A stretch of 64,000 bases of DNA, from positions 46,388 to 110,387 of the forward strand of contig CAKOIS010000001.1 of assembly GCA_934087065.1 (NCBI GenBank). The letters run 5' to 3'. How positions within the stretch are numbered: position 1 is the first letter of the stretch; every line of letters begins with the position of its first letter. Below are positions 6,527-62,929 of the stretch, in pieces. Below the pieces are notes generated by a model, which saw only the letters and a program-made list of their open reading frames with translations, was not told where the DNA came from and did no database searches. The position numbers and the translations under genes are program-made. The DNA is from an uncultured Bacilli bacterium. GTDB taxonomy: Bacteria > Bacillota_I > Bacilli_A > RF39 > UBA660.

Positions 6527-6555
6527 TTGATTTAAAACGTTATTTATGGTATGAT
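6527..6555 (+). promoter_or_regulatory. Extended -10 promoter of the first giant repeat-protein gene
   Basis: TTGATT, 17 nt, TGgTATGAT. The ATG at 6558 lies too close to the -10 to be used, which supports the ATG at 6585 as the start. Confidence 0.55.
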
Positions 6556-6584
6556 TTATGATAGAAAGTAGGGTGCAAAACTTT

Positions 6585-8804
6585 ATGAATGAAGAAGAAA
6601 AGAAAATAATAGAAGAAGAAGGTCTTTATTTCGTAGAGCCAGATAAGAAAGAAAAAAGAAAAAAAATACTAATAATTGTATTTGTATTTACTCTTTTTAT
6701 CGCGGCTACAGTAAGTACAACATACTCTGTAATAAACTTTATAAGTAATTACAAAATGAGACTAAATATAGACACAGATGGTGACGGCTTACCTGATTTA
6801 AACATAGACACAGACGGTGATGGCAAGTGTGACGTTAACTGCGACACAAATGGTGATGGAGTACCAGATATTGACATTGGTTACAAAAACATACAAAAAC
6901 CTTTCTTTAACATAGACACAGACGGTGATGGAAAACCAGACAAAAACTTAACAAATGTAAAAGACGAAAATGGAATGTGTATTAAAAACTGTGACACAAA
7001 TAACGATGGATATCCTGATACTAACATAGATTTTGACGATGACGGAATATGTGATTTAAACTGTGATACAGACAAAGATGGTAAATGTGATATTAACTGT
7101 GACATCAATAACGACGGCAAGTGTGATTTAAATTGTGACACTGATAAAGATGGAAAACCTGACACTAACATTGACGAAGACAAAGATGGAATTTGTGATA
7201 AAGCTTGTACAGGAAAAGAAAATGACTCATGCAAAATCAATTGTGATATAGACGGCGACGGCAAATGTGACAGAAACTGTGATACAAATAATGACGGCGT
7301 ATGTGATAAGAACTGCGATGTTAACGGCGATGGAGTATGTGACTATAACTGCGACACAGATAACGACGGCAAATGTAATAAAAATTGTGACACAAACGGC
7401 GATGGAATATGTGATAAATTCTGTGGGAACAAAGGAAGTGATGTTTGCCTTATTAACTGCGATACAGACAAAGATGGCATTTGCGACAAAAATTGCGATG
7501 TAAACGGAGACGGTAAATGCGACATAAATTGTGACACTAACAATGATGGAAAATGTGACAAAAACTGTGATACCGATAATGACGGCATTTGTGACAAGAA
7601 TTGCGATGGAAAAGAAAACGACTCATGTAAAATAAATTGTGACACAAATGGCGATGGAAAGTGTGATATCAACTGTGACACTGATGGTGACGGTAGATGC
7701 GATAAGAATTGTGACGTTAACGGCGACGGCAAATGTGACTATAACTGTACAGAGAATAATGATGTGTGCGTTAAAAATTGTGACACAAATAATGACGGAA
7801 AGTGTGACTTAAACTGCGATACAAATAATGATGGACAATGCGATAAGAACTGCGATACTGATAACGATGGAATTTGTGATAAATTCTGTGAAGGAAAAGA
7901 AAACGACTCATGTAAGCTAAACTGTGATACAAATGGTGATGGCAAATGCGACAGAAACTGCGACACAAATAACGATGGCAAATGCGATAAAAATTGTGAT
8001 GCCAACGGAGATGGAAAGTGTGATTACAATTGTGACTCAGACAGTGATAAATGTAAAAGAAATTGTGATACAGATGGAGACGGGAAATGTGAATTAAACT
8101 GTGATACCAACAATGATGGTGTATGCGACAAGAACTGTGACACTGATGGAGATGGTGTATGCGACAAAAATTGTGATGGAAAAGAAAACGACTCATGTAA
8201 ACTAAATTGTGACACTGATAACGATGGCAAATGCGATAGAAATTGTGATACAAATAACGATGGCGTATGTGACTATAACTGCGATACAAATGGTGACGGA
8301 AAGTGTGATAGGAACTGCGACATAGACAAAGACGGAGTATGTGACAAAAACTGTGACACTGATGGCGATGGCATTTGTGACAAAAACTGCGGAGCGCCTA
8401 TAGATATTGGAAAAGACGAAGAACACACAATAACATTTAAAGACTTAACAAATATGCAGAACATAAATATCTATCCAGGTTGGAGGAGTGCTAAATCTTT
8501 TGAAATAACAAACTCAAGTACAGTAGACTTAGTATACACAATAAAATTCACAAATGTAGAAAATACATTCACTACAAAAAACAACCTTAACTATGGTCTA
8601 ATAAGAGATGGAGAAGTACTAATAGATATAGACAAAGCAAAAGCACCTTACCAAGATGGAGATATGCTAAAAAGTGTAGTAATTAAACCTGGTGAAACAC
8701 ATACTTACCTATTTAAATTAATGTTTAAAGACACAAACGAAAACCAAGATACAGAACAAGGTAAGAAATTCACAACAAAAATTCAAATTGAAAACGTTCA
8801 TTAG
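6585..8804 (+). CDS. Membrane-anchored giant surface protein: acidic cytoplasmic head, one TM helix, about 44 Cys-rich DxDxDG (thrombospondin type-3-like) Ca-binding units, C-terminal TasA/camelysin-like module
   Basis: The start at 6585 (MNEEEKKIIEEEGLYF) matches the paralogue start MDEKEKRKIIEEEKLYF. TM helix ILIIVFVFTLFIAATVSTTYSVI. The 12-aa repeat is NCDTNNDGKCDK. The C-terminal motifs are YPGWRSAKSFEITN and NQDTEQGKKFTTKIQIE. Confidence 0.85.
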   Translation: MNEEEKKIIEEEGLYFVEPDKKEKRKKILIIVFVFTLFIAATVSTTYSVINFISNYKMRLNIDTDGDGLPDLNIDTDGDGKCDVNCDTNGDGVPDIDIGYKNIQKPFFNIDTDGDGKPDKNLTNVKDENGMCIKNCDTNNDGYPDTNIDFDDDGICDLNCDTDKDGKCDINCDINNDGKCDLNCDTDKDGKPDTNIDEDKDGICDKACTGKENDSCKINCDIDGDGKCDRNCDTNNDGVCDKNCDVNGDGVCDYNCDTDNDGKCNKNCDTNGDGICDKFCGNKGSDVCLINCDTDKDGICDKNCDVNGDGKCDINCDTNNDGKCDKNCDTDNDGICDKNCDGKENDSCKINCDTNGDGKCDINCDTDGDGRCDKNCDVNGDGKCDYNCTENNDVCVKNCDTNNDGKCDLNCDTNNDGQCDKNCDTDNDGICDKFCEGKENDSCKLNCDTNGDGKCDRNCDTNNDGKCDKNCDANGDGKCDYNCDSDSDKCKRNCDTDGDGKCELNCDTNNDGVCDKNCDTDGDGVCDKNCDGKENDSCKLNCDTDNDGKCDRNCDTNNDGVCDYNCDTNGDGKCDRNCDIDKDGVCDKNCDTDGDGICDKNCGAPIDIGKDEEHTITFKDLTNMQNINIYPGWRSAKSFEITNSSTVDLVYTIKFTNVENTFTTKNNLNYGLIRDGEVLIDIDKAKAPYQDGDMLKSVVIKPGETHTYLFKLMFKDTNENQDTEQGKKFTTKIQIENVH
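6765..8390 (+). repeat. In-frame 36-bp tandem repeat array (12-codon units) with a higher-order period of about 5-6 units
   Basis: The unit NCDT[ND][NG]DG[KIV]CD[KIRLY] repeats almost without interruption, punctuated by GKENDSCK[IL] variant units. Confidence 0.9.
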
Positions 8805-8863
8805 GACGTTTTTTTGTTTTAATAAAAATGTCAATACAAAAATAATGTTTGATTTACAGCGAC

Positions 8864-8892
8864 TTGACACACCATGCTTTTTGTGTTATAAT
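8864..8892 (+). promoter_or_regulatory. Perfect consensus sigma-A promoter for the 165-aa orphan gene
   Basis: TTGACA (8864..8869), 17-nt spacer ending in TGt, TATAAT (8887..8892). Confidence 0.65.
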
Positions 8893-8945
8893 CAAATTAT
8901 GAAAAAATTCAGCAGTATAATTTCGCTGAAAGAAAGGAGAAAATA

Positions 8946-9443
8946 ATGACAAAAATAGAACTATTTTCTATACCAATATATTTAATAAATGAAGAGCGTT
9001 ATTTAAAAACATTGACAGATAGAATGAATAATTATGTATGCAAATTTTCTGACGATAGAAAAGAAGAAGTAAAATCGGTTTGGAAAAAATACAATTACAT
9101 TAATAAGCCATGGAAATATAATCAAATAATAGGTTATGTTGAAATTGTATATAGAGATAATTCTATATACTTTGATATCTATAAAGTTTTTAAAAAGAGA
9201 GTAAGAGTAGCAAGTAATAGGAAAAGTTATATTTCGTATATGCCAACCAGTGGTTTTCACTTTAGCAACTTGAAAAATATGACAAACGAAGATATAAAGG
9301 TAGAAATAAACGAGTGGTTAAAAAATATTGAAAAGACATTTTGCAAAAATAAAGAAATATTAGATAAAAAGATGTTTGATGTTCAAATAGAGTACATCGA
9401 CTTAAAGTCATTAATAAATGACGCAAAAGAAAATGTACACTAA
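8946..9443 (+). CDS. Hypothetical cytoplasmic protein (165 aa, Lys/Tyr-rich), no family recognised
   Basis: AAGGAG RBS 7 nt upstream, its own consensus promoter and terminator, and no TM or signal sequence. It lies between the two giant paralogues. Confidence 0.6.
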   Translation: MTKIELFSIPIYLINEERYLKTLTDRMNNYVCKFSDDRKEEVKSVWKKYNYINKPWKYNQIIGYVEIVYRDNSIYFDIYKVFKKRVRVASNRKSYISYMPTSGFHFSNLKNMTNEDIKVEINEWLKNIEKTFCKNKEILDKKMFDVQIEYIDLKSLINDAKENVH

Positions 9444-9458
9444 GTGCATTTTCTTTTA
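9431..9458 (+). terminator. Weak rho-independent terminator
   Basis: ATGTAC - ACTAA - GTGCAT (one G-U pair), followed by TTTTCTTTTATT. Confidence 0.45.
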
Positions 9459-9520
9459 TTATATCTAGAGTTTTTTAAAAAAATATGGTAATATTATAAA
9501 TAGAATAAGAGGAGGATATT

Positions 9521-11191
9521 ATGGACGAAAAAGAAAAAAGAAAAATAATAGAAGAAGAAAAATTATATTTTGAACAAGAGGAACCTGTTAAGAAAAGAAA
9601 GTCAAAGACTGTTTTAATAGTTTTAGTGTTTATATTATTTATTGGTGTAACCTGTGTATCTTCATATATAGTTATGAATTATATACTACTTAAATCAAGA
9701 AATCTAAACGTTGACACTGATGGAGATGGATGGCCTGATTTAAATATAGACACAGATGGTGATAAAATTTGTAACGTAAACTGTGATAACAATAAAGATA
9801 ACAAGCCTGATTATAACATAAGCTATAAAAATATGATGGCTGCCTACTTTAATTTAGATACAGATAAAGATGGCAGACCTGATAAAAACATGATTAACCA
9901 AAAAGATGGAAATGGTATATGTATATTAAATTGTGATGTAGATAACGATAACAGACCAGACACTAATCTAGATTTTGATGGAGACGGGACAGCAGAACTA
10001 AATATAGACTTAAATAATGATGGTAAATGTGATATCAACTGTGATTATGTAGGAAACAAATATCCAACAATTAACCTAGATACAAACGAAGACAACAAGG
10101 CAGACCTAAACATAGATACAGACAATGACCAAAAACCAAACATAAACATTAATTATGGTACTAACTATAACGAAGCAATATTTAATATAGATACAGATGG
10201 CGATGGCATAGCAGATAAAAATCTTGTAAATCAAAAAGACAGTACAGGTAAATGTATATTAAACTGTGATACAAATAACGATGGATGGCCCGAAATCAAC
10301 ATAGATATAAATGGAGATGGCGTAGCAGACCTAAACATAGATACAACAGGAGACAACAAAGCAGACTTAAATATAGATTTAACTGGAAATAAAATATGTG
10401 ACTTAAACTGTGATACAAACAATGATGGTATAGCAGACACAAACATAGACACAGATAATGATGGAATAGCAAATATAAACATTGATATCAATAACGATGG
10501 CATAGCAGAAATAAATGTTGACACAACAGGAGACAAGAAAGCAGATACAAACCTATTAAATCAAACAGACAGTACAGGCAAATGCATATTAAACTGTGAC
10601 ACAAATAACGATGGAAGGCCAGATATGAATGTCGACTTAGATAACGATGGAATGCCAGACTTAAATATAAGTTTAAACAATAGTAATAGCATAAATGCGA
10701 ATGCAGACTCAGATAAAGATGGCGTAGCAGATAACTATCTAATAGATGCAAAAATATTAACTAAAGAAACAAAAGAAGAAAACATAGATTTAAATACAAC
10801 AAATGAATATAAATTCCCATATTTAGGAATGAATGACTTTGATAGCAGCATAGTAAAACCCGGTTGGACAAAAACAAAGAAATTTAACATAACAAATACA
10901 GGTGCTTCAACAATTACTTATTCAGTTTATTGGGAAGACATACTAAACGAATATCACTATGAAGTAAGACCATACTATACTTTATATAAAAATGGTACAG
11001 AAGTAGTAAGTGGAAAAGCAAATTATATTATAAACAACGGTGAAACACTTGTAGAAAACATAGAACTAAGTTCTAACCAAACTGATAAGTACGAATTAGT
11101 ATTTACATATGCACCAAATGTAGACCAAAAATTAATAGACAACAATGTAAACAGACTATATTATTCAGCATTAAAAATTGTTAAAAAATAG
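9521..11191 (+). CDS. Membrane-anchored surface protein, paralogue of 6585..8804 with Cys-poor DxDxDG repeats and a C-terminal TasA/camelysin-like module
   Basis: AGGAGG RBS. It shares the head (EEEKLYF), TM helix, first repeat block (NVDTDGDGWPDLNIDTDGD) and C-terminal motif KPGWTKTKKFNITN with the paralogue. Confidence 0.85.
   Translation: MDEKEKRKIIEEEKLYFEQEEPVKKRKSKTVLIVLVFILFIGVTCVSSYIVMNYILLKSRNLNVDTDGDGWPDLNIDTDGDKICNVNCDNNKDNKPDYNISYKNMMAAYFNLDTDKDGRPDKNMINQKDGNGICILNCDVDNDNRPDTNLDFDGDGTAELNIDLNNDGKCDINCDYVGNKYPTINLDTNEDNKADLNIDTDNDQKPNININYGTNYNEAIFNIDTDGDGIADKNLVNQKDSTGKCILNCDTNNDGWPEINIDINGDGVADLNIDTTGDNKADLNIDLTGNKICDLNCDTNNDGIADTNIDTDNDGIANINIDINNDGIAEINVDTTGDKKADTNLLNQTDSTGKCILNCDTNNDGRPDMNVDLDNDGMPDLNISLNNSNSINANADSDKDGVADNYLIDAKILTKETKEENIDLNTTNEYKFPYLGMNDFDSSIVKPGWTKTKKFNITNTGASTITYSVYWEDILNEYHYEVRPYYTLYKNGTEVVSGKANYIINNGETLVENIELSSNQTDKYELVFTYAPNVDQKLIDNNVNRLYYSALKIVKK
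9707..10740 (+). repeat. In-frame degenerate 36-bp repeat array (N[ILV]DxxxDGx[AP]Dx units interspersed with CxxxC-containing units)
   Basis: Examples are NIDTDGDGIADK, NIDINGDGVADL, NIDTDNDGIANI and NIDINNDGIAEI. A spacer unit of the form NQKD(G/S)xGxCILNCD occurs three times. Confidence 0.8.
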
Positions 11192-11196
11192 CAACA

Positions 11197-11225
11197 AAAT
11201 AGGAACATTAAATTCCTATTTTTTC
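11197..11225 (+). terminator. Rho-independent terminator
   Basis: AAATAGGAA - loop - TTCCTATTT, followed by a T run. Confidence 0.7.
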
Positions 11226-11263
11226 TTTTGTGTTAAAAAAATGAAAAAACTATCAAAAAAGGG

Positions 11264-11292
11264 TTGATTTTATCAAAAAAACTTGATACAAT
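11264..11292 (+). promoter_or_regulatory. Sigma-A promoter of the putative major TasA-like subunit gene
   Basis: TTGATT, 17 nt, TACAAT, then AAGGAGG (11303..11309) 9 nt before the ATG. Confidence 0.6.
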
Positions 11293-11318
11293 TTTTAATG
11301 TAAAGGAGGTAAAGAACT

Positions 11319-11879
11319 ATGGGAGAAAACAAAGGACAAACTATTTTCTTATCAGTAATTGGAATCGCAACTTTATTAGTAGCAATTATAGGTGCAACAT
11401 TTGCATACTTCACAACTACTATGGGAAATAAAAATGCCGTTACAGGTGGTGTTACTACTGCAACTATTTCAGCTGTAACATTAGCTGGAACTGAGTTTGA
11501 CGCAAAAAATGTAATGCCAGGTTGGACAAGTGATGAACAAACTTTCACTATTTCTGCTGCAACAATCACTGGTGACGCAACTGCTGATTATGTTTGTAAC
11601 ATTATTAAAACTGGTACAGGAGTATCAACTGATTTCCAATATGCAGTAACAACTGGTACAGCTGGTACTACATATGGTGAGTGGGCAGCTGTTCCAGCAA
11701 CTTCAACTGAAGTTGCTAAGGGAACACTTTCAGCATCAAGCAAAACTCACACTTACAAAGCTAAGTTCCAATTAGTTGAAACTAATGCAAACCAAAATGA
11801 ACAACAAGGTCAAAGCTATGGTGCTTCTATTACATGCGCATTAACTAAAGTTAATGGAAAAGCTGTAGAAGGTGAATAG
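11319..11879 (+). CDS. TasA/camelysin-family secreted protein with SipW-type signal peptide (putative major fibre subunit)
   Basis: The leader MGENKGQTIFLSVIGIATLLVAIIGATFAYFTTT matches the ..GGT[FL]AYF[ST]D class. It carries MPGWTSDEQTFTIS and NQNEQQGQSYGASITCA motifs, a Thr/Ala/Gly-rich mature part, and its own promoter and terminator. Confidence 0.8.
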   Translation: MGENKGQTIFLSVIGIATLLVAIIGATFAYFTTTMGNKNAVTGGVTTATISAVTLAGTEFDAKNVMPGWTSDEQTFTISAATITGDATADYVCNIIKTGTGVSTDFQYAVTTGTAGTTYGEWAAVPATSTEVAKGTLSASSKTHTYKAKFQLVETNANQNEQQGQSYGASITCALTKVNGKAVEGE

Positions 11880-11920
11880 TTTGAATTAACATAGTTAATT
11901 TACGATTATTAACAAAAATT

Positions 11921-11947
11921 AAGTTAGATTTACTTCTAACTTTTTTT
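11921..11947 (+). terminator. Rho-independent terminator
   Basis: AAGTTAG - loop - CTAACTT, followed by TTTTTT. Confidence 0.7.
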
Positions 11948-11960
11948 GTTGTTTATGTAC

Positions 11961-11989
11961 TTGAATTTTTCACATTTTTTTGGTATCAT
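11961..11989 (+). promoter_or_regulatory. Extended -10 promoter of the two-gene minor-subunit operon
   Basis: TTGAAT, 17 nt, TGgTATCAT. Confidence 0.55.
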
Positions 11990-12013
11990 ATTATATAGAA
12001 TACGGTGATAGAT

Positions 12014-12586
12014 ATGAAAGAGAAAGATATTAAAACATATATTTATTCAATAATAGTAGTTTTATCATTTATTTTGGTAGCTATAGGCGCATCTTTAGCA
12101 ATAGTTTATTATAAAGTAAATGGTAACAATGAAAACGGAAACGTTGATGTTAAAACAGCATATGTAACTGCGGCATTTCATGAAATACAAGGCTTTAACG
12201 ACGAAAATGTACTTCCTGGTTGGAGTAATGAAATGAAATTTGAAATAATTAACACATCAACAGAACAAAACGCTGTTGGTAGATATTCACTAGTTTGGGA
12301 TATCACAAAAAATGAAATAGACAGTAAAGATTTTATTTATACATTAACTGGAGAAAGCACATTAGATGGTCAAACAATTGAAGACAACACTCCAACAAAT
12401 AAATTAGTAACAGTAACTGGGCAACAAATAGTTCCTACTATAAGTTTTACTTTAGGTAGCGGAATAATTAACACAGGAGTTAAACATAGCTATGTGCTTA
12501 AGGTTTCATTCCTTGAAAGTGGAGAAAATCAAAATGAACTTCAAGGCAAAACTTTTAACTCAACAATAGTTGCACAAGGAAAGTAG
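12014..12586 (+). CDS. TasA/camelysin-like protein with an uncleaved-looking N-terminal TM anchor (putative minor/anchoring subunit)
   Basis: The ATG at 12014 is preferred; the ORF track starts at GTG 12005. TM helix IYSIIVVLSFILVAIGASLAIVYY without the AYF motif. It carries LPGWSNEMKFEIIN and NQNELQGKTFNSTIVAQ motifs. Confidence 0.7.
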   Translation: MKEKDIKTYIYSIIVVLSFILVAIGASLAIVYYKVNGNNENGNVDVKTAYVTAAFHEIQGFNDENVLPGWSNEMKFEIINTSTEQNAVGRYSLVWDITKNEIDSKDFIYTLTGESTLDGQTIEDNTPTNKLVTVTGQQIVPTISFTLGSGIINTGVKHSYVLKVSFLESGENQNELQGKTFNSTIVAQGK

Positions 12587-12594
12587 GTGTTAGA

Positions 12595-13188
12595 ATGAAG
12601 GAAAAAAATCAAGAAATATTATTATCAGTTGTAAGCATTCTAACAATTATAGTAGCTGTAATTGGTGTTACATTTTCATACTTTACTACTAAAATGACTG
12701 GTTCAGGAACAAGTGGAACAGTAACAACTGCAAAAGTTGGAAACATTACATTTGATGGAGGTAATGATTTAACAAATGCAAACGATATAGAGCCAGGCGA
12801 TACATTTGATAAGACATTCAGTATAAGTGTTCCAGCAACAGATGTATCAAACACTGTATATATAAGAATGGATTTCACAAACGAATTTCAAGACTTACAG
12901 TGGAGTATAAAAGGAACAGGTGCTAATACAAGTGTTATAACTGGTACAATACCAACAACATCTACAAAAACAACAGTAACACTTGTAACTAACAAAATAA
13001 CTAAAAACTCAGTAGCTCAAACATTTAATTATACATTAACAATAACACTACCTAATTTAGATAAAAATCAAGATTATGACCAAGGAAAAACATTCAGTGG
13101 TACATTATATGCAGACTTAGGCGATGGCGTTGATATGATATATTATAACAACACACATCCAAGTGGAACAACTACAAAACCACAGTAG
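12595..13188 (+). CDS. TasA/camelysin-family secreted protein with SipW-type signal peptide (second subunit)
   Basis: Leader MKEKNQEILLSVVSILTIIVAVIGVTFSYFTTK, plus EPGDTFDKTFSISV and NQDYDQGKTFSGTLYAD motifs. Confidence 0.8.
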   Translation: MKEKNQEILLSVVSILTIIVAVIGVTFSYFTTKMTGSGTSGTVTTAKVGNITFDGGNDLTNANDIEPGDTFDKTFSISVPATDVSNTVYIRMDFTNEFQDLQWSIKGTGANTSVITGTIPTTSTKTTVTLVTNKITKNSVAQTFNYTLTITLPNLDKNQDYDQGKTFSGTLYADLGDGVDMIYYNNTHPSGTTTKPQ

Positions 13189-13205
13189 CAGAAATGCTAC
13201 TTTTT
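13185..13205 (+). terminator. Rho-independent terminator
   Basis: GTAGCA-GAAA-TGCTAC followed by TTTTT. The stop codon lies in the stem. Confidence 0.7.
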
Positions 13206-13338: not shown

Positions 13339-14244
13339 ATGAATAAAGAAGATTTTAAAAATACAGAAGATATGCTTAAAGATATTGAAGATGTATCATA
13401 TGAAAAAATTGGTTACCTAAAAGAACTAATAAGCCTAGAATATACTTCTCATAAAGATACTGACGAATATAATAAAGTTATATCTTTCTATATAGGTGCT
13501 ACTAAAAAAGAAAAAATATTATATGAAGAATTATCTAAAAATAAGAATTATCTATCTATTGCTGATAAAATTATAACAAATGAAGCAGGTAAACTTAATA
13601 ATAATATAATGTCTTATCAAAATGATTACAATTACATACTAATAAGAATGTTTAAAATTATAGATAAAACTTTAGATAATATGAATTCTAATAAAGTAGA
13701 CAAAGTAAATAATTTAATAACAGACTTACAAATGTATGAATTAGAGTTGTCTTCTTTATATTACTTAGACAAAATAATTAAAGAAGGAAAAACTAGCATA
13801 GGACTAGATAAACTTATTAGAAACAAATACATGCTTGCATTCACAAGTCCTTCTATCGAAAAGTTCATGATAGAAAGTAACTTTACCGCACCAAATATAT
13901 TAATCAAATTTACAGATTACTATATAGAAAAATTCAACTTACCAATTAGCATATACAAATCTAGACAAGAAGAAATATTTATAGACACATTAATAGACTA
14001 TATAATATATTTAGATAACATAAGTCTATTTGATATGTTAAACTTAGAAGTAAAAGCAGAAATTCATACAAGACTAACTTACATAAAAGGAATGTCTTTA
14101 GATATACCAAACGATGTAATAAATAGCATTATCTATCATCAAACATACAAAAATGACTTAATGAGAAGAATAATTAATTCTAATTTAATACAAGCTATGG
14201 AAGAAAAAGAAAAAACTTCAAAATTAATAAGAGTTCAAGAATAA
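13339..14244 (+). CDS. Hypothetical cytoplasmic protein (about 300 aa, predicted helical), no family recognised
   Basis: ATG at 13339 preceded by AGGTGG; the ORF track starts at GTG 13330. No TM or signal sequence. It lies immediately downstream of the TasA-like locus. Confidence 0.55.
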   Translation: MNKEDFKNTEDMLKDIEDVSYEKIGYLKELISLEYTSHKDTDEYNKVISFYIGATKKEKILYEELSKNKNYLSIADKIITNEAGKLNNNIMSYQNDYNYILIRMFKIIDKTLDNMNSNKVDKVNNLITDLQMYELELSSLYYLDKIIKEGKTSIGLDKLIRNKYMLAFTSPSIEKFMIESNFTAPNILIKFTDYYIEKFNLPISIYKSRQEEIFIDTLIDYIIYLDNISLFDMLNLEVKAEIHTRLTYIKGMSLDIPNDVINSIIYHQTYKNDLMRRIINSNLIQAMEEKEKTSKLIRVQE

Positions 14245-17875: not shown

Positions 17876-18457
17876 ATGTTAGAAACATTAAAAGCAATTA
17901 AAAGAACACTTTTAACTGAAAATATTTATGAAGGGGATATATTCTTTTTACAAGACGAAAATGAAAATAGCTTTGAAAAGGTGTATATTGCTAGCTACTC
18001 AATACCAAGATTTGAAAAAAGGAGAGTATTATTTAAAACAGGTGATTCACCATATTACGTTAAAGAATTACTTACTGGAAAGAAAATACCAGTATTGTAT
18101 TTAGAACGACTAGACTATGATTTAGCAAAACCTGGACATTGTTTTAAATTCAATATATTAAAAGACAAACTACCTGAATATTGTATAATTTATGATAAAA
18201 GCTATGCCAATTTTCAAGCGTGTTCTAACTTAGCTAAACGCGATTTAAATTATGTTAGTACAACATTAGCGACTTACGAAAATGAAGATAAACTTTTAAA
18301 TGAGAAAACAAATACCCACTTAATAGACGTAATTTTGAGTGAATGCTTAAAATACGTTAAAATGGTGAGTGAAAAAAGATATCAAAATGAACAACGCGAA
18401 AATGATGAGTTAGTAGCTAAAAGAATTTTAATTGAAAAATATCTTAATAGAAAATAA
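17876..18457 (+). CDS. Hypothetical protein (193 aa), no family recognised, inserted between gap and pgk
   Basis: Strong RBS, its own promoter and terminator, and no TM or signal sequence. Confidence 0.6.
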   Translation: MLETLKAIKRTLLTENIYEGDIFFLQDENENSFEKVYIASYSIPRFEKRRVLFKTGDSPYYVKELLTGKKIPVLYLERLDYDLAKPGHCFKFNILKDKLPEYCIIYDKSYANFQACSNLAKRDLNYVSTTLATYENEDKLLNEKTNTHLIDVILSECLKYVKMVSEKRYQNEQRENDELVAKRILIEKYLNRK

Positions 18458-20520: not shown

Positions 20521-21279
20521 ATGAAAAAGAAAATCTTAGTAGTAGACGACAATGTTAGCATAGTAAATATGATAAAAGAATATTTTGCTAAAAGTACAGA
20601 AGTAGAAGTAACAGACGAAGCACATGATGGCTTAGAAGCATGGGAAAAGATAGAGAAAAACAAATACGACTGCATTTTACTTGACTTAATCATGCCAAAA
20701 AAAGACGGAATTTATGTCCTAGAAAAGGTTAAAGAAAAAAATCTTACTCCAAACATAATAGTACTAACTAGCTATAATGAACAAGAAACAATAAGAAACG
20801 TAAGTGAGTTTGGCGTAAAATACTTTATCCTAAAACCATTTGACTTTATTGATTTAGAAAAAAGAATACTAGACGCTACTAAAGAAAGAAAACACTTAAC
20901 CGCAGTAAACTTACTTGAAAAATCACTTGATACTTCAATTACAAAAGTCTTACACGATCTAGGAATACCTTCGCACATAAAAGGCTATCAATACATAAGA
21001 GACGCAATAAAATTTGTATATAACGAACCTAAATTAATTGGTGGAATAACAAAAGAATTATATCCACTAGTCGGAGAAAAATACTCAGTAAGTAACTCAA
21101 GAGTAGAAAGAAGTATCCGCCATGCAATAGAAGTATCATGGAACCGTGGAGACTGGGAACTAATGGAAGAAATATTCGGCCACTCAGTAGACATAGATAA
21201 AGCAAAACCAACAAATAGCGAATTCATTGTAACAATTGCTGACAAACTAAGACTAGACACACTCAAAGTATCAAACTAA
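20521..21279 (+). CDS. spo0A: Sporulation master response regulator Spo0A
   Basis: REC domain (VVDDN...LLDLIMPKKDG) plus Spo0A-specific C-terminal segments HIKGYQYIRDAI, SRVERSIRHAIEVSWNRG and KPTNSEFIVTIADKLRL. Confidence 0.9.
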   Translation: MKKKILVVDDNVSIVNMIKEYFAKSTEVEVTDEAHDGLEAWEKIEKNKYDCILLDLIMPKKDGIYVLEKVKEKNLTPNIIVLTSYNEQETIRNVSEFGVKYFILKPFDFIDLEKRILDATKERKHLTAVNLLEKSLDTSITKVLHDLGIPSHIKGYQYIRDAIKFVYNEPKLIGGITKELYPLVGEKYSVSNSRVERSIRHAIEVSWNRGDWELMEEIFGHSVDIDKAKPTNSEFIVTIADKLRLDTLKVSN

Positions 21280-27716: not shown

Positions 27717-27783
27717 AACATCATACTTAACTATTTTTTTTATTTACTTTGTGATAAAATTTATATATAAAGGTAGTGATAAT

Positions 27784-30003
27784 ATGAGTTTTGGAGTATC
27801 ATTTTCAAGTCTAAGTCTCTTTTATAGTATATTACTAACTATAACATATTTCAAAAAGAAAAGAGCTAAAAACTATGAAACAAAATTATATGGATGGTTA
27901 ATAATAACAAATCTAATAGGACTCGTCCTAGCCATTGCGTGTTATTTCTTTGTATTAAATAAAGAAACATACGAAATAGCAAACTTTATAATCTCACGAT
28001 TTTATTTGATATATCTAACAACATGGATAATGATACTTACAATGTATGTAATCATGATATCAGTTAAACAAGAAAGCTTAGAAAAAACATGGGACAAATT
28101 ACTAAAATATATGATAATCATATGGTTTATAGCAAGTTTTATCACTTTTATCTTACCATTAAATTATGTAAACACAAATAATTTGGTATATTCATATGGA
28201 ACATCTGCAAACTTTACTTTCTTAATAGGCTTCCTATTTGAAATAGTATGCTTTATATTCATGTTAAAAAATATAAAGAGCATAAAAAATAAAAAATATT
28301 TGCCAATAATCTTATACATGATAGGCGGCACAATTGTAATGGCTATTCAAAAACTAAATCCGGGATTACTACTAATGACATCTGCTGAAACTTTTGTAAC
28401 ATTCTTAATGTATTTCACAATAGAAAACCCAGACATGAAACTAATAAACGAACTAGAACTAGCCAAAAACTCAGCCGAAAAGGCTAACCATGCTAAAACA
28501 GAATTCTTAAGTAGTATGTCTCACGAAATAAGAACACCTCTAAATGCAATTGTAGGTTTATCAGAAATAATAAATAAAACTGACGATGTAAAAGAAATAC
28601 ACGAAGACTCAAAAGATGTAGTAAATGCAAGCTACACACTTCTAGAAATAGTAAACAGCATTCTAGACATAAGTAAAATTGAAGCAGGAAAAATGGAAAT
28701 AGTAAAAGTTAACTATAATCCAAAAGACGAAATACAAAAACTTACAAAACTACTAGAAACTAGAATAGGCTCAAAAGACTTAAAACTATATGTTGAAATA
28801 GATGAAAAATTGCCAAACGTTTTATATGGAGACTTAAATAAGTTAAAACAAATAATATCAAATTTACTATCAAATGCAATCAAGTACACTGAAAGTGGTC
28901 GTGTAGATCTAAAAGTTGTGGTAGAAAACACAGACAAAATATGTAACTTAGAAATAATGGTAAAAGATACAGGCCGCGGTATAAAAGAAGACCAACTAGA
29001 TCACCTATTTAGCAAGTTTGATAGACTTGAAGAAGACAAAAATACATCAATTGAAGGAACAGGATTAGGTCTTGCAATAACAAAAAGTCTTGTAGAAATG
29101 CTTGGTGGTACTATAAATGTAGAAAGCACATATGGCATAGGAAGTGTGTTTACTGTAACAATTCCTGAAGAAATATCAGACGTTGTCTTAGAAACTACAG
29201 AAACCGAAAGTATTACTAAATATAACGGAGTAACTTCTCTTATTGTAGATGACTCAAAACTAAACCTTAAAGTAGCAGAAAAAATACTAGCTGAATATGG
29301 TTTAACTAGTGAAAGTGTACTAAGTGGAGATGAGTGTATAGACAAAATAAAATCAGGAAACAAATACGATATAATATTTATGGACATAATGATGCCTAAC
29401 AAGGGTGGAGTAGAAACTCTTAAAGAACTTAAGTCACTTCCTAACTTTAATACACCAGTAGTCGCATTAACCGCAGACGCAATGGAAGGGCAAAAAGAGG
29501 CGTATTTATCTGCTGGATTCATTGCATACTTATCAAAACCAATTGATCGTCAAGAACTAGAGTCTTTCTTAAAAAAAGAACTAAAAGACAAAGTAACACT
29601 AGAAAATACAAAAAGTTCTGTCAAAGAAGAAATCAAGCCTGCCAAAAAAGAAAATAATAAAGAAGAATTACTTACTAATGTTGGACTAGACCTAAAAAAA
29701 GCATATGAGTTCTTTATGGACATAGACACTCTTATCCCACAACTAAAAGAATACCTTGCTGAAAGTGTAGAAAACAAGCGTGTTATAAAAGAGTCTTATA
29801 ATAAGAAAGATGACATCAACTACGAAATAGTAGTGCACAAATTAAAAAGTGAAAGTAGAATGTTGGGACTTACTGACTTAGGAGAAATGTTCTATAATCA
29901 TGAACTAGCTGCTAAAAGAAAAGATTGGGACTATATAAATAAGGAATACACTTCATTAATAAACGAATATGATAAAGTATTAAATGTACTAGAAAAACTA
30001 TAA
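27784..30003 (+). CDS. Hybrid sensor histidine kinase / response regulator with C-terminal HPt domain
   Basis: About 7 N-terminal TM helices, H-box SHEIRTPLNAI, N/G boxes (LSNAIKYT; DTGRGI; GTGLGLAI), REC (IIFMDIMMPNKGG...ALTADA) and HPt (HKLKSESRMLG). The ATG at 27784 has a better RBS than the GTG at 27751. Confidence 0.8.
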   Translation: MSFGVSFSSLSLFYSILLTITYFKKKRAKNYETKLYGWLIITNLIGLVLAIACYFFVLNKETYEIANFIISRFYLIYLTTWIMILTMYVIMISVKQESLEKTWDKLLKYMIIIWFIASFITFILPLNYVNTNNLVYSYGTSANFTFLIGFLFEIVCFIFMLKNIKSIKNKKYLPIILYMIGGTIVMAIQKLNPGLLLMTSAETFVTFLMYFTIENPDMKLINELELAKNSAEKANHAKTEFLSSMSHEIRTPLNAIVGLSEIINKTDDVKEIHEDSKDVVNASYTLLEIVNSILDISKIEAGKMEIVKVNYNPKDEIQKLTKLLETRIGSKDLKLYVEIDEKLPNVLYGDLNKLKQIISNLLSNAIKYTESGRVDLKVVVENTDKICNLEIMVKDTGRGIKEDQLDHLFSKFDRLEEDKNTSIEGTGLGLAITKSLVEMLGGTINVESTYGIGSVFTVTIPEEISDVVLETTETESITKYNGVTSLIVDDSKLNLKVAEKILAEYGLTSESVLSGDECIDKIKSGNKYDIIFMDIMMPNKGGVETLKELKSLPNFNTPVVALTADAMEGQKEAYLSAGFIAYLSKPIDRQELESFLKKELKDKVTLENTKSSVKEEIKPAKKENNKEELLTNVGLDLKKAYEFFMDIDTLIPQLKEYLAESVENKRVIKESYNKKDDINYEIVVHKLKSESRMLGLTDLGEMFYNHELAAKRKDWDYINKEYTSLINEYDKVLNVLEKL

Positions 30004-46370: not shown

Positions 46371-46477
46371 ATAACCCGTTGGTTGCGAAAAGCACTCAAC
46401 AAAAACCTAGAAAAAACATCGACAAAATTGATAAATGTTGAATGATGTAAAAAAATAAAAAAAAGTTAAAAAAAGTG

Positions 46478-59327: not shown

Positions 59328-61973
59328 ATGAATAATTATTACCAAATGTCTGAAAAAGAAACATTAAAAAAACTAAAAACAACAAAAGAAGGATTAACAA
59401 CAAAAGAAGCAGTAAAAAGAATAAAACTCTACGGCAAAAACTCACTTCCAAAATCAAAACAAAAGTCATACATTCAAGTATTTTTGTCAGAATTTAAAAA
59501 CCCAATATGTTATATCTTACTAATAACAATGATTTTATCTTTTACAATAGGCGAATACATAGATGCAATTTTTATACTCTTTGTAGTACTAATAGATGCC
59601 TTACTTGGTTCAGTTCAAGAATACAAAAGTTCTAAAAGTGCTGAAGCATTAAAAAAAATAGTAAAAGTAGAAGCAAAAGTACTAAGAGACAACAAAGAAG
59701 TAATTATAGAAAGTTCTGACTTAACAATTGGCGACATAGTCTATTTAGAAAGTGGAAACATAGTCCCAGCAGACTTAAGACTCCTTGTTGTAAATAATCT
59801 AGAAGTAGATGAGTCCATATTAACAGGTGAGTCTATCCCACGTGAAAAACACACTAAAAAAATAACTAAAGAAGTAACTATAAACGACAGAACCAATATG
59901 TGTTACCTAGGCACAAACATAACAAGAGGCCGCGCGATAGGTGTAGTTACATCTATTTCAAAAGACACAGAAATAGGTAGCATTGCAAAAGAAGTTTTAA
60001 ATAGCTCTATAACTCTAACACCACTTCAAATAAGAATGAACAAATTCACAAAAGACCTAAGCCTAATCGCAGCCATTCTTGCTGTAATCGTAACATTCAT
60101 TTTATACATAAAAGGCTACACTGCAAAAGAAATATTTTTCCTAGTTATTGCACTAAGCGTATCAGCTATTCCTGAGGGCTTGCCTGTAGTAATAACACTC
60201 GCTTTATCTATAAGTAGTGACAAAATGGCTAAAAAGAATGTAATAGTAAAAAAACTAAATGCAGTTGAAGCACTAGGCAGCACTACACTAATTGCAAGTG
60301 ACAAAACAGGCACTCTTACACTAAACGAGCAAACGGTTAAAAAAATAGTTTTACCAAACAACGACACATATATAGTTACAGGTGAAGGCTATAACGGTAT
60401 CGGAAAAATTGAAGGTAAAAATGTAAATAAAGTAAAAAATATCATAAAAGAAGGACTATATAACAACGAAGCAACACTTTCACTTCAAAACGATGAATGG
60501 GTCTCATTCGGTGACTCAATGGACATAGCTCTTTTATCTTTAGGCTACAAATATGGTTTAGAAAACATAGATTTAAGAACAAACGTAATTGATAGAATTC
60601 CATACGAGTCCGATAACGGCTATTCAGTTGCATTCTATAAAGAACAAGATGATATGTATATAACAATAAAAGGTGACTTAGAAAAAGTACTTAAGTTTAC
60701 AAAAAAAACAACTAACAAAGAAAAGATCAGAAAACAAAATGAACTTTTAGCAAGTGATGGTTACAGGGTATTAGCTTTCGCAAGTGCAAAAATAACTTCT
60801 TTTAAACAAAAAGATATTTATAAAGAAAGTGATATTCCGCCCCTTAAATTTAGTGGCTTAGTTGCATTCCTAGACCCAATTAGACCTGATGCTAAAGAGG
60901 CAGTAGAAAAATGTAAAAGTGCTGGAATAAAAGTAGTCATGATAACTGGAGATCACCCACAAACAGCTTACAAAATTGCCCGCAACCTAGGAATTTGCTC
61001 AAACGAAACAGAACTATCTACTGGAGAAGAGTTATCTAAATTTCTAAAAAAAGACCAAAGTACTTTTGACGAATACATAAAAACTAAAAAAGTATTTAGC
61101 CGCGTTACACCAATGCAAAAACTAGAAATAGTCTCTTCATACAAAAGATTAGGTGAATTTGTAACAGTAACCGGGGATGGTGTAAACGATAGCCCCGCCC
61201 TAAAAGAAGCAAATACAGGTGTTGCCATGGGAAGTGGAACAGACATAGCAAAAGAGACTTCTTCACTTATCATTACAGACGATAAATTTTCCTCAATAGT
61301 AAAAGGTGTAGAAGAAGGACGTGGTGCATACGACAACATTAGAAAAGTAACATATATGCTTTTATCTTGTGGTGTCAGTGAAGTCGTGTTTTATTTGTTC
61401 TCAATTCTATTAGACTACTCTGTACCACTAACTGCAATTCAACTCCTCTGGCTAAACCTAGTAACAGATGGAATACAAGATGTCACTCTTGCATTTGAAC
61501 AAACTGACAAAGACGTACTAAAAAGAAAACCAAGAAGCACAAAAGAAAACTTATTTGATAGATTACTAAAAAACGAAATACTTCTAATGGGACTAACAAT
61601 GGGAATAATTGTCTTCGGTGTTTGGGTCTACTTAATAGATGTACTAAAACTCCCAACAGTAGTCGCAAGAAGTTACATTCTATTTCTTATGGTATTCATG
61701 CAAAACATACACTGCTTTAACTGTAGAAGTGAAACAAAAAGCATATTTAGTATTCCACTAAAAAACAACAAAAAATTAGTTTTATCTATCTTAATAGTAT
61801 TATTTATACAATTTGTAGTAGTAGAAAATAGTGTATTATCGCATCTTTTAGAAACAGAAACAATTCCACTATTACATGTACTATGCTTGTTCTTAGCTTC
61901 TCTTCCAATTATAATCGTTTCAGAAATAATGAAATACTTTGAAAGAGACAAAATAAGGAGGGGAAAATCTTGA
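59328..61973 (+). CDS. P-type (P2) Ca2+-transporting ATPase
   Basis: TGES, DKTGTLT, TGDHPQTA and GDGVNDSPALK, plus 10 TM helices with PEGLPVV in M4 (the Ca-site signature of SERCA/PMCA-like pumps). Confidence 0.88.
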   Translation: MNNYYQMSEKETLKKLKTTKEGLTTKEAVKRIKLYGKNSLPKSKQKSYIQVFLSEFKNPICYILLITMILSFTIGEYIDAIFILFVVLIDALLGSVQEYKSSKSAEALKKIVKVEAKVLRDNKEVIIESSDLTIGDIVYLESGNIVPADLRLLVVNNLEVDESILTGESIPREKHTKKITKEVTINDRTNMCYLGTNITRGRAIGVVTSISKDTEIGSIAKEVLNSSITLTPLQIRMNKFTKDLSLIAAILAVIVTFILYIKGYTAKEIFFLVIALSVSAIPEGLPVVITLALSISSDKMAKKNVIVKKLNAVEALGSTTLIASDKTGTLTLNEQTVKKIVLPNNDTYIVTGEGYNGIGKIEGKNVNKVKNIIKEGLYNNEATLSLQNDEWVSFGDSMDIALLSLGYKYGLENIDLRTNVIDRIPYESDNGYSVAFYKEQDDMYITIKGDLEKVLKFTKKTTNKEKIRKQNELLASDGYRVLAFASAKITSFKQKDIYKESDIPPLKFSGLVAFLDPIRPDAKEAVEKCKSAGIKVVMITGDHPQTAYKIARNLGICSNETELSTGEELSKFLKKDQSTFDEYIKTKKVFSRVTPMQKLEIVSSYKRLGEFVTVTGDGVNDSPALKEANTGVAMGSGTDIAKETSSLIITDDKFSSIVKGVEEGRGAYDNIRKVTYMLLSCGVSEVVFYLFSILLDYSVPLTAIQLLWLNLVTDGIQDVTLAFEQTDKDVLKRKPRSTKENLFDRLLKNEILLMGLTMGIIVFGVWVYLIDVLKLPTVVARSYILFLMVFMQNIHCFNCRSETKSIFSIPLKNNKKLVLSILIVLFIQFVVVENSVLSHLLETETIPLLHVLCLFLASLPIIIVSEIMKYFERDKIRRGKS

Positions 61974-62929
61974 CTTTAATTCTAACAGCAATAATTCTAT
62001 TTGTAATCGGACTAGTTTCACTTATAAGATTTTCAGACATATTTGTAAGTGCAGCTTCTAGTCTTAGTATTCACTTAAAAGTTCCTAAAATGTTAATTGC
62101 TTTAACAGTCGCTGCCTTTGGTACCTGTGCTCCAGAACTAGCAATATCATTTAACTCAATAAGTGGTGGTAACCCTGACATGACTCTTGCAAATGTAATC
62201 GGTTCATGCATAGTAAACATACTATTAATTGTAGGTATAGCTGCAATCGTTAGACCCATCAAAGTAAAAGAAAGAACAATAAAAAAAGAACTTCCTTTAT
62301 TAGTAATCATAACTTCAGCTTTCTTTGTTTTATTAACAGACTCACTATTTAAAAAAGGTGCATCTAATACTCTATCTCGTGCTGATGGTATAATGCTTCT
62401 TTGCTGGTTTATCCTATTCATGTTCTACATAATCGGATTAGTAAGAAAAAACAAAAACGAAGAAACACTTATTCCTGAATATAGTCTAAAAAAATCTATA
62501 ATTTTAATAATACTCACACTCATTGGAATAATAGTGTCTTCAGACATAGTTGTAGATAACGCTGTAATGCTTGCAGAAGTTTTAGGAATAAGCCAAAAAA
62601 TAATATCAATGACAGCCATAGTAATAGGAACCTCTCTTCCTGAACTAACAATGACAGTAAACGCGGCTAGAAAAGACGAATTTGATATGGCAGTAGGTAA
62701 CATAATAGGGACTAACATATTTAACATATGTATAGTTTTAGGTCTTCCTATTAGCATATATGGAACAGTTTCTTCAAACGCATTCACAATAGTGGACTCA
62801 AGCATTGTCTTACTTGCATCTATCATATTTTATATATTTGGAAAAAGTGGTAAAGTCTTATCAAGAAGAGAAGGAATATTAATGTTTTTAGTATTTTTAA
62901 TATATTATGTATACTTATTTATAAGTTAA
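61970..62929 (+). CDS. Ca2+/Na+ antiporter (CaCA family, YrbG-like)
   Basis: Two alpha-repeats, GTCAPELAIS and GTSLPELTM. The TTG start overlaps the ATPase stop (CTTGA). Confidence 0.85.
   Translation: MTLILTAIILFVIGLVSLIRFSDIFVSAASSLSIHLKVPKMLIALTVAAFGTCAPELAISFNSISGGNPDMTLANVIGSCIVNILLIVGIAAIVRPIKVKERTIKKELPLLVIITSAFFVLLTDSLFKKGASNTLSRADGIMLLCWFILFMFYIIGLVRKNKNEETLIPEYSLKKSIILIILTLIGIIVSSDIVVDNAVMLAEVLGISQKIISMTAIVIGTSLPELTMTVNAARKDEFDMAVGNIIGTNIFNICIVLGLPISIYGTVSSNAFTIVDSSIVLLASIIFYIFGKSGKVLSRREGILMFLVFLIYYVYLFIS

Follow-up and report, generated by a model that had tools for sequence, protein, structure and literature searches.

A putative TasA-type fibre locus of uncultured gut Bacilli in which the subunit fold also tips membrane-anchored DxDxDG-repeat proteins

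We analysed a 64,000-nucleotide stretch of DNA (hereafter the window; positions 46,388 to 110,387 of contig CAKOIS010000001.1, assembly GCA_934087065.1, from an uncultured bacterium of the Bacilli lineage RF39/UBA660) in which five neighbouring genes, all on the forward strand, encode proteins with a TasA-like module. Two of them specify long single-pass membrane proteins, here called giants: g1 (6585..8804; 739 amino acids, aa), delineated from its open reading frame (ORF), gene calls, a hidden Markov model (HMM), AlphaFold2 (AF2) and Foldseek, and g2 (9521..11191; 556 aa), delineated from its ORF, a repeat parse and the HMM. The g1 gene consists largely of a repeat array, or stalk (6765..8384, from repeat parsing and AF2), and a C-terminal TasA-like jelly-roll module (8391..8801, from the HMM, AF2 and Foldseek), with a terminator-like hairpin at its end (8790..8813); the corresponding C-terminal module of g2 (residues 414-556; 10760..11188) is divergent. 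The remaining three genes encode small proteins: p3 (11319..11879; 186 aa), a TasA/BsaA-like subunit that we propose as the major fibre subunit, and p4 (12014..12586; 190 aa), whose leader is a variant, and p5 (12595..13188; 197 aa), family members that we propose as minor subunits. A second terminator-like hairpin (13184..13201) closes the unit g2-p3-p4-p5. An earlier note, made from the sequence alone, had described five co-directional ORFs at these coordinates, and independent gene calls on identical public contigs likewise yield products of 739, 556, 186, 190 and 197 aa; every motif string that the note quoted is present in the translations, and the second of its two motifs is degenerate in g2, as it had said.

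That all five proteins end in a common module, as the same note proposed, was confirmed with a single HMM, built from 74 small-subunit relatives among which p3 was the sole sequence from the window. This HMM matched every one of the five, with E values ranging from 9e-47 to 2.8e-7: p3 at 9e-47, p5 at 3.8e-44, p4 at 1.9e-38, g1 at 6.8e-26 (module hit 1.2e-25; residues 624-746 of its 748-aa ORF) and g2 at 2.8e-7 (residues 414-531). By this sequence measure, the resemblance of the five C-terminal modules is far beyond chance.

A word-indexed search with p3 recovered 481 homologues, several of which, at 42-45% identity (E ~1e-26), carry a precomputed assignment to the camelysin family PF12389, and an exhaustive profile search extended the set to 4,648 representative clusters at E values up to 0.001. 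Among the more distant relatives listed, 33 of 74 match PF12389 (best E 1.4e-10), and the same 74 include seven matches to the SipW-dependent signal model TIGR04088, five to the BsaA model TIGR04090 and three to the TasA model NF046066. A search with the C-terminal module of g1 alone returned three near-identical fragments, which reflects the limit of the word index. The full-length AF2 model of g1, computed from 106 aligned sequences, has predicted local distance difference test scores (pLDDT) of 90-97 over the module, and when compared by Foldseek with 350,542 PDB chains its top match was the TasA fibre (8AUR_A; E 2e-5, probability 1.00), with the archaeal thread 7PNB and the bundling pilus 7UEG lower in the list. 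Because these intermediates match the family profiles and the best structural match of the g1 module is the TasA fibre, the module in all five proteins is assigned, on profiles and models, to the TasA/camelysin/BsaA superfamily, which upholds the TasA/camelysin-type identity first read from the motifs. No HExxH was noticed on reading the five translations, a reading that was not a formal test for the camelysin metalloprotease site.

The two giants are, by their predicted topology, N-in single-pass membrane proteins with a long DxDxDG array between helix and module. In g1, an acidic, cytoplasmic head (residues 1-26; EEEKKIIEEEGLYF) and a basic patch precede a transmembrane (TM) helix at about residues 27-52 (helix 21-57 in the AF2 model, pLDDT 84-96), which is followed by about 44 Cys-rich 12-residue repeats of the form N-C-D-T-[DN]-x-D-G-x-C-D-x (residues 61-600), a low-confidence hinge (residues 588-602) and the module (residues 603-739). 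The g1 array is composed of 25% D, 15% N, 14% C and 11% G. The head motif (EEEKLYF) and TM helix recur in g2, and its approximately 25 repeats (residues 63-400) are Cys-poor, with the form N-[ILV]-D-x-[DN]-x-D-[GN]-x-[AP]-[DE]-x, such that the Cys positions of g1 are replaced by I/L and A/P. DxDxDG-like matches (D-x-[DN]-x-[DN]-G) number 39 in g1 and 17 in g2, and 27 of the 38 intervals between those of g1 are exactly 12 residues long. The AF2 model of the g1 stalk shows beta-bridges every 12 residues, with pLDDT of 93-97 at residues 60-160 and lower values in the middle of the array, and the Asn that opens each repeat is nearly invariant; together, the recurring bridges and the Asn suggest a ladder with one strand per turn.

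DxDxDG is an established calcium-binding loop, reportedly since Rigden and Galperin (2004), and from this motif the repeat arrays of both giants are probably Ca-binding. The earlier note had called for a comparison with the thrombospondin type-3 repeat model, which gave no support: the Pfam model TSP_3 (PF02412) matched none of the five proteins at E values up to 1, and the only Pfam signal of the repeats was a sub-threshold DUF6802 (23.8 bits against a cut-off of 27). Matches of the repeats to Sdr/Clf adhesin models of NCBIfam were set aside as compositional. Among the top 50 PDB matches of the g1 model, none was a structural analogue of the repeat array.

The architecture extends well beyond the window. 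A search with g1 returned 877 proteins, and among the best 120 the TasA-like module occupies the C-terminal end in 108, each of which has exactly one predicted TM helix, with a net charge of +2.45 before and +0.61 after it; the order of acidic head, single TM helix, DxDxDG array and module given in the earlier note thus stands, and its N-in topology is supported. The head motif EEKKIIEE[ED]GLYF is kept across species, and in 48 of the 108 (about 45%) the TM helix begins at residue 90-150, so that some 90 aa before it make up a cytoplasmic domain (for example in P0344, P0276 and P0293, with the pattern ...INLKEFMLLD..KQDE...MYE....V..KH.EKVLN.AFD). The 108 proteins are nearly unannotated: 101 have no Pfam record, seven have only PF12733, and the sole name that their sources give is 'hypothetical protein'. 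In the other 12 of the 120, the same repeats are joined to Flg_new, Big_2, MucBP or cadherin-like domains or to C-terminal anchors, which indicates that the array is a generic stalk. Arrays of the NCDxxxDGxCD type with Flg_new, Big_2, MucBP, cadherin-like and RCC1 domains occur in the gut Firmicute surface proteins P0288, P0290, P0309, P0316, P0353 and P0376.

This promiscuity of the stalk admits a reading in which the giants are stand-alone adhesins or surface spacers, whose jelly-roll tip binds a ligand such as a glycan outside any fibre, and which have only their ancestry and regulation in common with a fibre of small subunits; that carbohydrate-binding modules appear among the structural matches to the module is in keeping with it. 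However, about 40 loci from many species encode giants together with small subunits, the tip is itself a homologue of these subunits, and the tip of g2 co-varies specifically with p3 (see below), so that we regard independent adhesins as rather improbable.

The small proteins appear, as judged from their N-termini, to carry the SipW-cognate type of leader. The first 33 residues of p3 (M..NKGQTIFLSVIGIATLLVAIIGATFAYFTT) are nearly invariant among proteins that are otherwise 40-50% identical, and its N-terminal helix ends in GATFA|YFTT, with a predicted SipW-type cleavage at A29|Y30 in a context comparable to that of TasA (GGGTWA|AFND). The AF2 model of p3 contains eight strands and a helix at residues 8-30, and residues 27-45, which have pLDDT below 50 and are disordered in the monomer, lie in the position of TasA residues 28-38 (PMC9674648). 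The leader of p5 is similar (GVTFS|YFTT), and that of p4 is a variant (AIGASLAIVYYKV) of a class that other loci also have, whether sipW is next to them or not. At the other end, p5 bears a C-terminal tail (IYYNNTHPSGTTTKPQ) of the pattern (V/I)YYNxxxPxGTTxxP (13140..13185), which is kept in many p3 homologues and missing from p3 and p4 of the window; because the C-terminal tail of TasA contacts the neighbouring subunit in the fibre, the p5-type tail may be an inter-subunit contact or a modification site. A pair of cysteines in p3 (C93 and C173; 11595..11597 and 11835..11837) recurs in 90% or more of the p3-type subunits but not in p4 or p5; the two residues may be linked by a disulfide, here in an anaerobe's extracellular protein. 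Several relatives (P0126, P0152, P0191 and the product of 8562..9806 in locus L009) begin with the small-subunit leader and domain and continue into C-terminal extensions of 414-1098 aa, which makes them candidate tip adhesins of the same fibre type.

The leader assignment draws on the neighbourhoods of the homologues. A scan of species-representative genomes yielded 79 related loci, all from uncultured gut Bacilli, 'Tenericutes', Clostridium sp. CAG:628 or CAG:524, or Erysipelotrichaceae metagenome-assembled genomes; the whole set, window included, numbered 88 loci. In 53 of the 88, all belonging to subclades other than that of the window, a gene for a SipW-type peptidase lies directly 3' of the small-subunit genes; against the archaeal-type signal peptidase I model TIGR02228 (cut-off 51.85) this peptidase reaches 102 bits, and against the SipW model 97 bits. 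Whether or not sipW is adjacent, the loci have the same leader motif, and GATFA[YW]F also occurs on the homologues encoded directly upstream of the peptidase in those 53 loci, which supports the SipW-cognate class that had been read from the leaders. The loci of the window's own subclade (about 20) comprise two giants, three to nine small genes and housekeeping genes, and the peptidase is never adjacent.

The same leaders could be taken for those of type IV pilin-like proteins, with an archaeal class III signal (KG|Q) and a conserved N-terminal assembly helix, given that NKGQTIFLSVIGIATLLVAIIGA resembles a class III leader and that the helix is nearly invariant. But neither a prepilin peptidase nor a pilus ATPase is present among the identified recurrent neighbour clusters, none of the 40 most frequent of which resembles either, SipW is adjacent in 53 loci, position +5 is Leu rather than Glu, and the family is tied to PF12389 and TIGR04088. 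We rejected this reading on the neighbourhood evidence and consider it extremely improbable.

A feature that the earlier note overlooked is the hypervariability of p3. Between the window and sister lineages (L005, L007 and L022) that have approximately 92% identical flanking DNA and 97-98% identical housekeeping proteins, g1 is 95-96% and p5 90-96% identical, whereas p3 is only 42-68% identical, and the g2 module (35%) is far more divergent than the g2 stalk (68%). At the DNA level, homology is lost precisely across the g2 module (10525-11226) and the p3 domain (11425-11875). Conversely, p3-type alleles that are 94-97% identical occur in lineages whose other locus proteins are only 30-65% identical (groups L005/L025/L020 and L007/L010, with L005 carrying two tandem p3 paralogues at 9262..10588), which argues for horizontal exchange of serotype-like p3 cassettes. 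Partial Mantel tests across 15 loci showed that divergence of the g2 module is correlated with that of the major subunit both when the g2 stalk is controlled for (r 0.31, p 0.007) and when p5 is controlled for (r 0.44, p 0.0002); p4 and p5 retained no residual correlation with the g2 module.

Cumulatively, we propose, with a probability of about 0.55, that the locus encodes a donor-strand fibre with a variable major subunit, built on membrane-anchored stalks that carry an acceptor-only domain. Under this model, p3, p4 and p5 would be exported by Sec and cut after GATFA or GVTFS by a peptidase of the SipW type whose gene would lie elsewhere in the genome, and the freed N-terminus (YFTTTMGNKNA...) would act as the donor strand that completes the sheet of a neighbouring subunit, as in TasA. 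The major subunit p3 would be abundant, exposed and under diversifying selection, with p4 and p5 serving as minor subunits (adaptor or tip). The match of the giants' module starts near HMM position 55, and the donor-strand segment of the small subunits is missing from it; with an acceptor groove that would thus have no adjacent donor strand, the module would terminate the fibre. The giants would stay unreleased, their module taking the donor strand of the cell-proximal subunit and thereby ending and anchoring the fibre, and g2 would be matched to p3. The repeat array would probably form a Ca2+-stiffened solenoid with one strand per turn, and at 0.48 nm per repeat the stalks would measure approximately 21 nm in g1 and 12 nm in g2, carrying the junction through the cell wall. 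Published work fits the proposed polarity and anchoring: the N-terminal strand 28-38 of TasA enters the next subunit of the fibre (PMC9674648), BsaA is reported to form membrane-anchored oligomers, for which growth from the base has been proposed (PMC11580942), and TafF is the predicted terminal anchor of haloarchaeal tafi (PMC11821415).

Several results weigh against this model, the first group of which concerns family identity. No window protein alone passes a curated family cut-off in Pfam and NCBIfam scans: p3 scores 16.9 bits (E 0.006) on PF12389, with a cut-off of 22.5, over residues 134-169 only, g1, g2, p4 and p5 have no PF12389 match, and none of the five proteins matches TIGR04088 at E values up to 1. 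The profile and signal-model comparisons that the earlier note proposed therefore give hits among the relatives (33 and seven of the 74, as given above) and none above a cut-off for the window proteins themselves. Its structural comparison with TasA was likewise answered in part: the g1 module does find 8AUR as its top match, at a modest TM-score of 0.35 on the target, but the p3 model (pLDDT 72.8) matches only generic jelly-rolls, carbohydrate-binding modules and FimG, so that structural support for the TasA fold comes from g1 only. PDB sequence and profile searches with p3 and the family alignments did not reach TasA (the best matches being AbpX, 9RHP, at E 0.15 and unrelated proteins), and hhalign aligned the family with Bacillus subtilis TasA at E 0.0024 and a probability of 12%, from the leader to the PGD motif only. 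In addition, the g2 module and p3 lie next to each other, so that their co-variation could be an effect of physical linkage.

A second group concerns the peptidase. The earlier note had called for a search of the rest of the genome for sipW but had missed its absence from the window itself: none was found in the 64-kb window by HMM on all ORFs or, below an E value of 0.01, by tblastn, nor in the 10 kb beyond each window end (84 kb in all). The ORF at 17876..18457 was considered as a SipW candidate on its similar size and discarded, its translation being unlike a signal peptidase and having no Pfam match. The absence of sipW near the locus, here and in the roughly 20 loci of the same subclade, raises the alternative that no fibre is made in the window's lineage and that, without a dedicated SipW, all five proteins remain tethered by their N-terminal helices as a membrane-anchored coat, a reading that would also account for an N-terminal helix unusually conserved for a signal peptide. 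However, the cleavage motif is intact and nearly identical to that of the sipW-linked homologues, and archaeal bundling-pilus loci without a linked peptidase nevertheless make fibres (PMC9245690); the search here covered 84 kb only. We judge the coat highly improbable, and because the leader motif is the same regardless of linkage, and the bundling-pilus loci likewise lack a linked peptidase, we expect the peptidase of the fibre to be encoded elsewhere in the genome.

The final point against the proposed fibre, in which the giants stay in the membrane, is that many giants keep a leader-like [GA]-A-T-[YV]-[SA] at the outer end of the TM helix, and it introduces the main rival, namely that the giants are SipW substrates too. 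Cleaved at that end, they would be released as long-linker subunits built into or cross-linking the fibres, with a new N-terminus as donor strand, the Ca-repeat array as spacer and the module as acceptor. The leader-like ends include IVGATYS|AFHY, IGATIA|TTW and AATVS|TTYS (the last from g1), and the HMM aligns the TM region of g1 to the small-subunit leader, a stretch that is not significant alone. Yet of 144 distinct giants only 10 have a strict form of the leader motif, a disposable signal peptide would not be expected to include the conserved cytoplasmic heads or the approximately 90-aa domains of 48 of the 108 relatives, and the segment after the TM in the AF2 model continues the helix at pLDDT 84-96. 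We thus hold cleavage of the giants to be unlikely and favour the anchored stalk.

More tentatively, the locus may represent an undescribed and widespread class of gut Gram-positive pilus, in which a TasA-type donor-strand fibre is built on and ended by a dedicated type II membrane protein that has a Ca-dependent, wall-spanning solenoid of 12-residue repeats and a conserved cytoplasmic head (in many relatives about 90 aa long) through which the fibre could be coupled to the cell interior, and in which the major subunits are interspecies serotype cassettes matched to one stalk tip. In the literature we found no description of TasA-family proteins combined with DxDxDG stalks, which agrees with the earlier note's claim of an undescribed architecture. 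The claim does not extend to the concept of a TasA-like anchor subunit, which is not new because TafF and the SLH or LPXTG anchors of AbpX loci were predicted earlier. Already known or predicted are the TasA superfamily, SipW dependence, donor-strand assembly and the dedicated anchor subunit; not found described are the combination of type II anchor, cytoplasmic head, 12-residue DxDxDG stalk and TasA-like tip with two paralogues per locus, the wide occurrence of giants in gut Bacilli, and the exchange of major subunits in the manner of cassettes.

What ties TasA-type matrix fibres to the cell that produces them is unsettled, with the role of TapA debated and the archaeal and AbpX anchors predicted only, and the window locus offers a genetically explicit candidate for such an anchor: a stalk, anchored in the membrane, whose tip is a copy of the subunit fold that would only accept strands. 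Dozens of species share the layout of the giants, as do hundreds of metagenomic protein clusters, nearly all of them without a Pfam domain or a name, and the 12-residue DxDxDG array, as a reusable stalk module, merits a family definition of its own. The variation further suggests that gut Bacilli which are uncultured and have small genomes spend resources on a surface fibre that is hypervariable and exchanged horizontally, a pattern expected under host-immune or phage pressure.

Between g1 and g2, the locus also contains a sixth ORF (8946..9443; 165 aa), overlooked in the earlier note. A promoter that agrees fully with the sigma-70 consensus (12/12 plus TG; 8864-8892) precedes it, and it has a terminator to itself (9425-9457). 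This ORF occurs in the lineage of the window (L001-L003, L088 and L089) but not in the sisters L005-L008 and L022, and has no significant match in Pfam, NCBIfam or PADLOC. Directly 3' of p5, a 301-aa ORF (13339..14244) is kept only in the window's lineage (nine loci); it matches no family, and its translation shows no obvious hydrophobic helix. PADLOC returned no match for the 165-aa, the 301-aa or a 193-aa ORF. In 33 related loci, not including the window, the small-subunit genes are adjoined by a gene for a YfhO/PgfM-like membrane glycosyltransferase (PF09586, E 7e-142; for example 7358..9895 in L026, and in L036, L052 and L037), a neighbour that suggests O-glycosylation of the Thr-rich subunits. 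At 59328..62929 of the window, at a distance of 46 kb, the gene for a P-type cation ATPase (881 aa) is directly followed by one for a Na/Ca-exchanger-family protein (319 aa), and the two might act together in calcium export. Elsewhere in the window are genes for Spo0A (20521..21279) and a hybrid histidine kinase (27751..30003), and GerQ is encoded just outside it (952..1281 in L088); FtsEX-PcsB, PBP5 and M23 peptidases are also present. From these genes, the 'Tenericutes'-labelled host is a walled and probably sporulating Firmicute.

Among known systems, the stalks can be compared with Ca-repeat rods, the RTX beta-roll (GGxGxDxUx) and the thrombospondin type-3 repeat (DxDxDGxxDxxDxC), with which they share tandem short loops rich in Asp and Gly, paired Cys (in g1) and, in the AF2 model, a regular ladder to which each repeat contributes one beta-bridge pair, the Asn residues likewise forming a ladder; the period of the giants, however, is 12 residues and not nine. 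In the sortase-assembled pili of Gram-positive bacteria, polymerisation stops once a minor subunit, the basal pilin, is built in, and the fibre is thereby attached to the envelope. The functional logic that we propose for the giants, to terminate and to anchor, is the same, but fold and chemistry are unrelated, and no sortase or LPXTG motif is involved in the window locus.

The closest parallels are with fibres of the TasA type. The B. subtilis system (tapA-sipW-tasA; 8AUR, 5OF1) likewise has a jelly-roll subunit with a GGTxA|xF-type leader, PGD/PGW and C-terminal Q-G motifs, a donor strand directly after the cleavage site (PMC9674648) and a SipW-type peptidase, which is linked in most of the related loci; unlike it, the window locus contains neither sipW nor a TapA homologue, and direct sequence similarity of its proteins to TasA is at the detection limit. 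TapA is a secreted strand donor and nucleator with a macroglobulin-like central domain (PMC9674648, PMC9245690), and has been proposed to donate the first strand (PMC9674648, PMC10151520), whereas the giants are predicted to be membrane-anchored and acceptor-only and to have the subunit fold rather than that of TapA. The analogy with TapA drawn in the earlier note is therefore inverted, in that the giants carry an acceptor-type domain without an adjacent free N-terminus. The BsaA system of Clostridium perfringens (sipW-bsaA-bsaB-bsaC; TIGR04090) also comprises a SipW-dependent TasA-like subunit in an anaerobic Firmicute, and its proposed growth from the base has the newest subunit held by its leader (PMC11580942); it differs in that an N-K isopeptide bond, catalysed by a Glu, locks the BsaA subunits, and in that no dedicated stalk or anchor protein has been described.

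Finally, TafF (PMC11821415) and the SLH or LPXTG anchors of AbpX loci (bioRxiv 10.64898/2026.01.04.697558) are predicted terminal subunits that combine an acceptor domain with an anchoring element and would take the donor strand of the last major subunit, as we propose for the giants. A single TM helix and a TasA-like module, at a fibre locus, as in TafF, recur in g1, g2 and 108 of the 120 relatives, which would accept a strand in the same manner. TafF is anchored C-terminally and exported by Sec beside Tat-exported subunits, whereas the giants have an N-terminal type II helix and a conserved cytoplasmic head, and they differ from both kinds of predicted anchor in their DxDxDG rod of 300-540 residues and in the presence of two paralogous anchors per locus. 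On this comparison, we infer that the giants resemble the predicted archaeal anchor TafF more than they do TapA.

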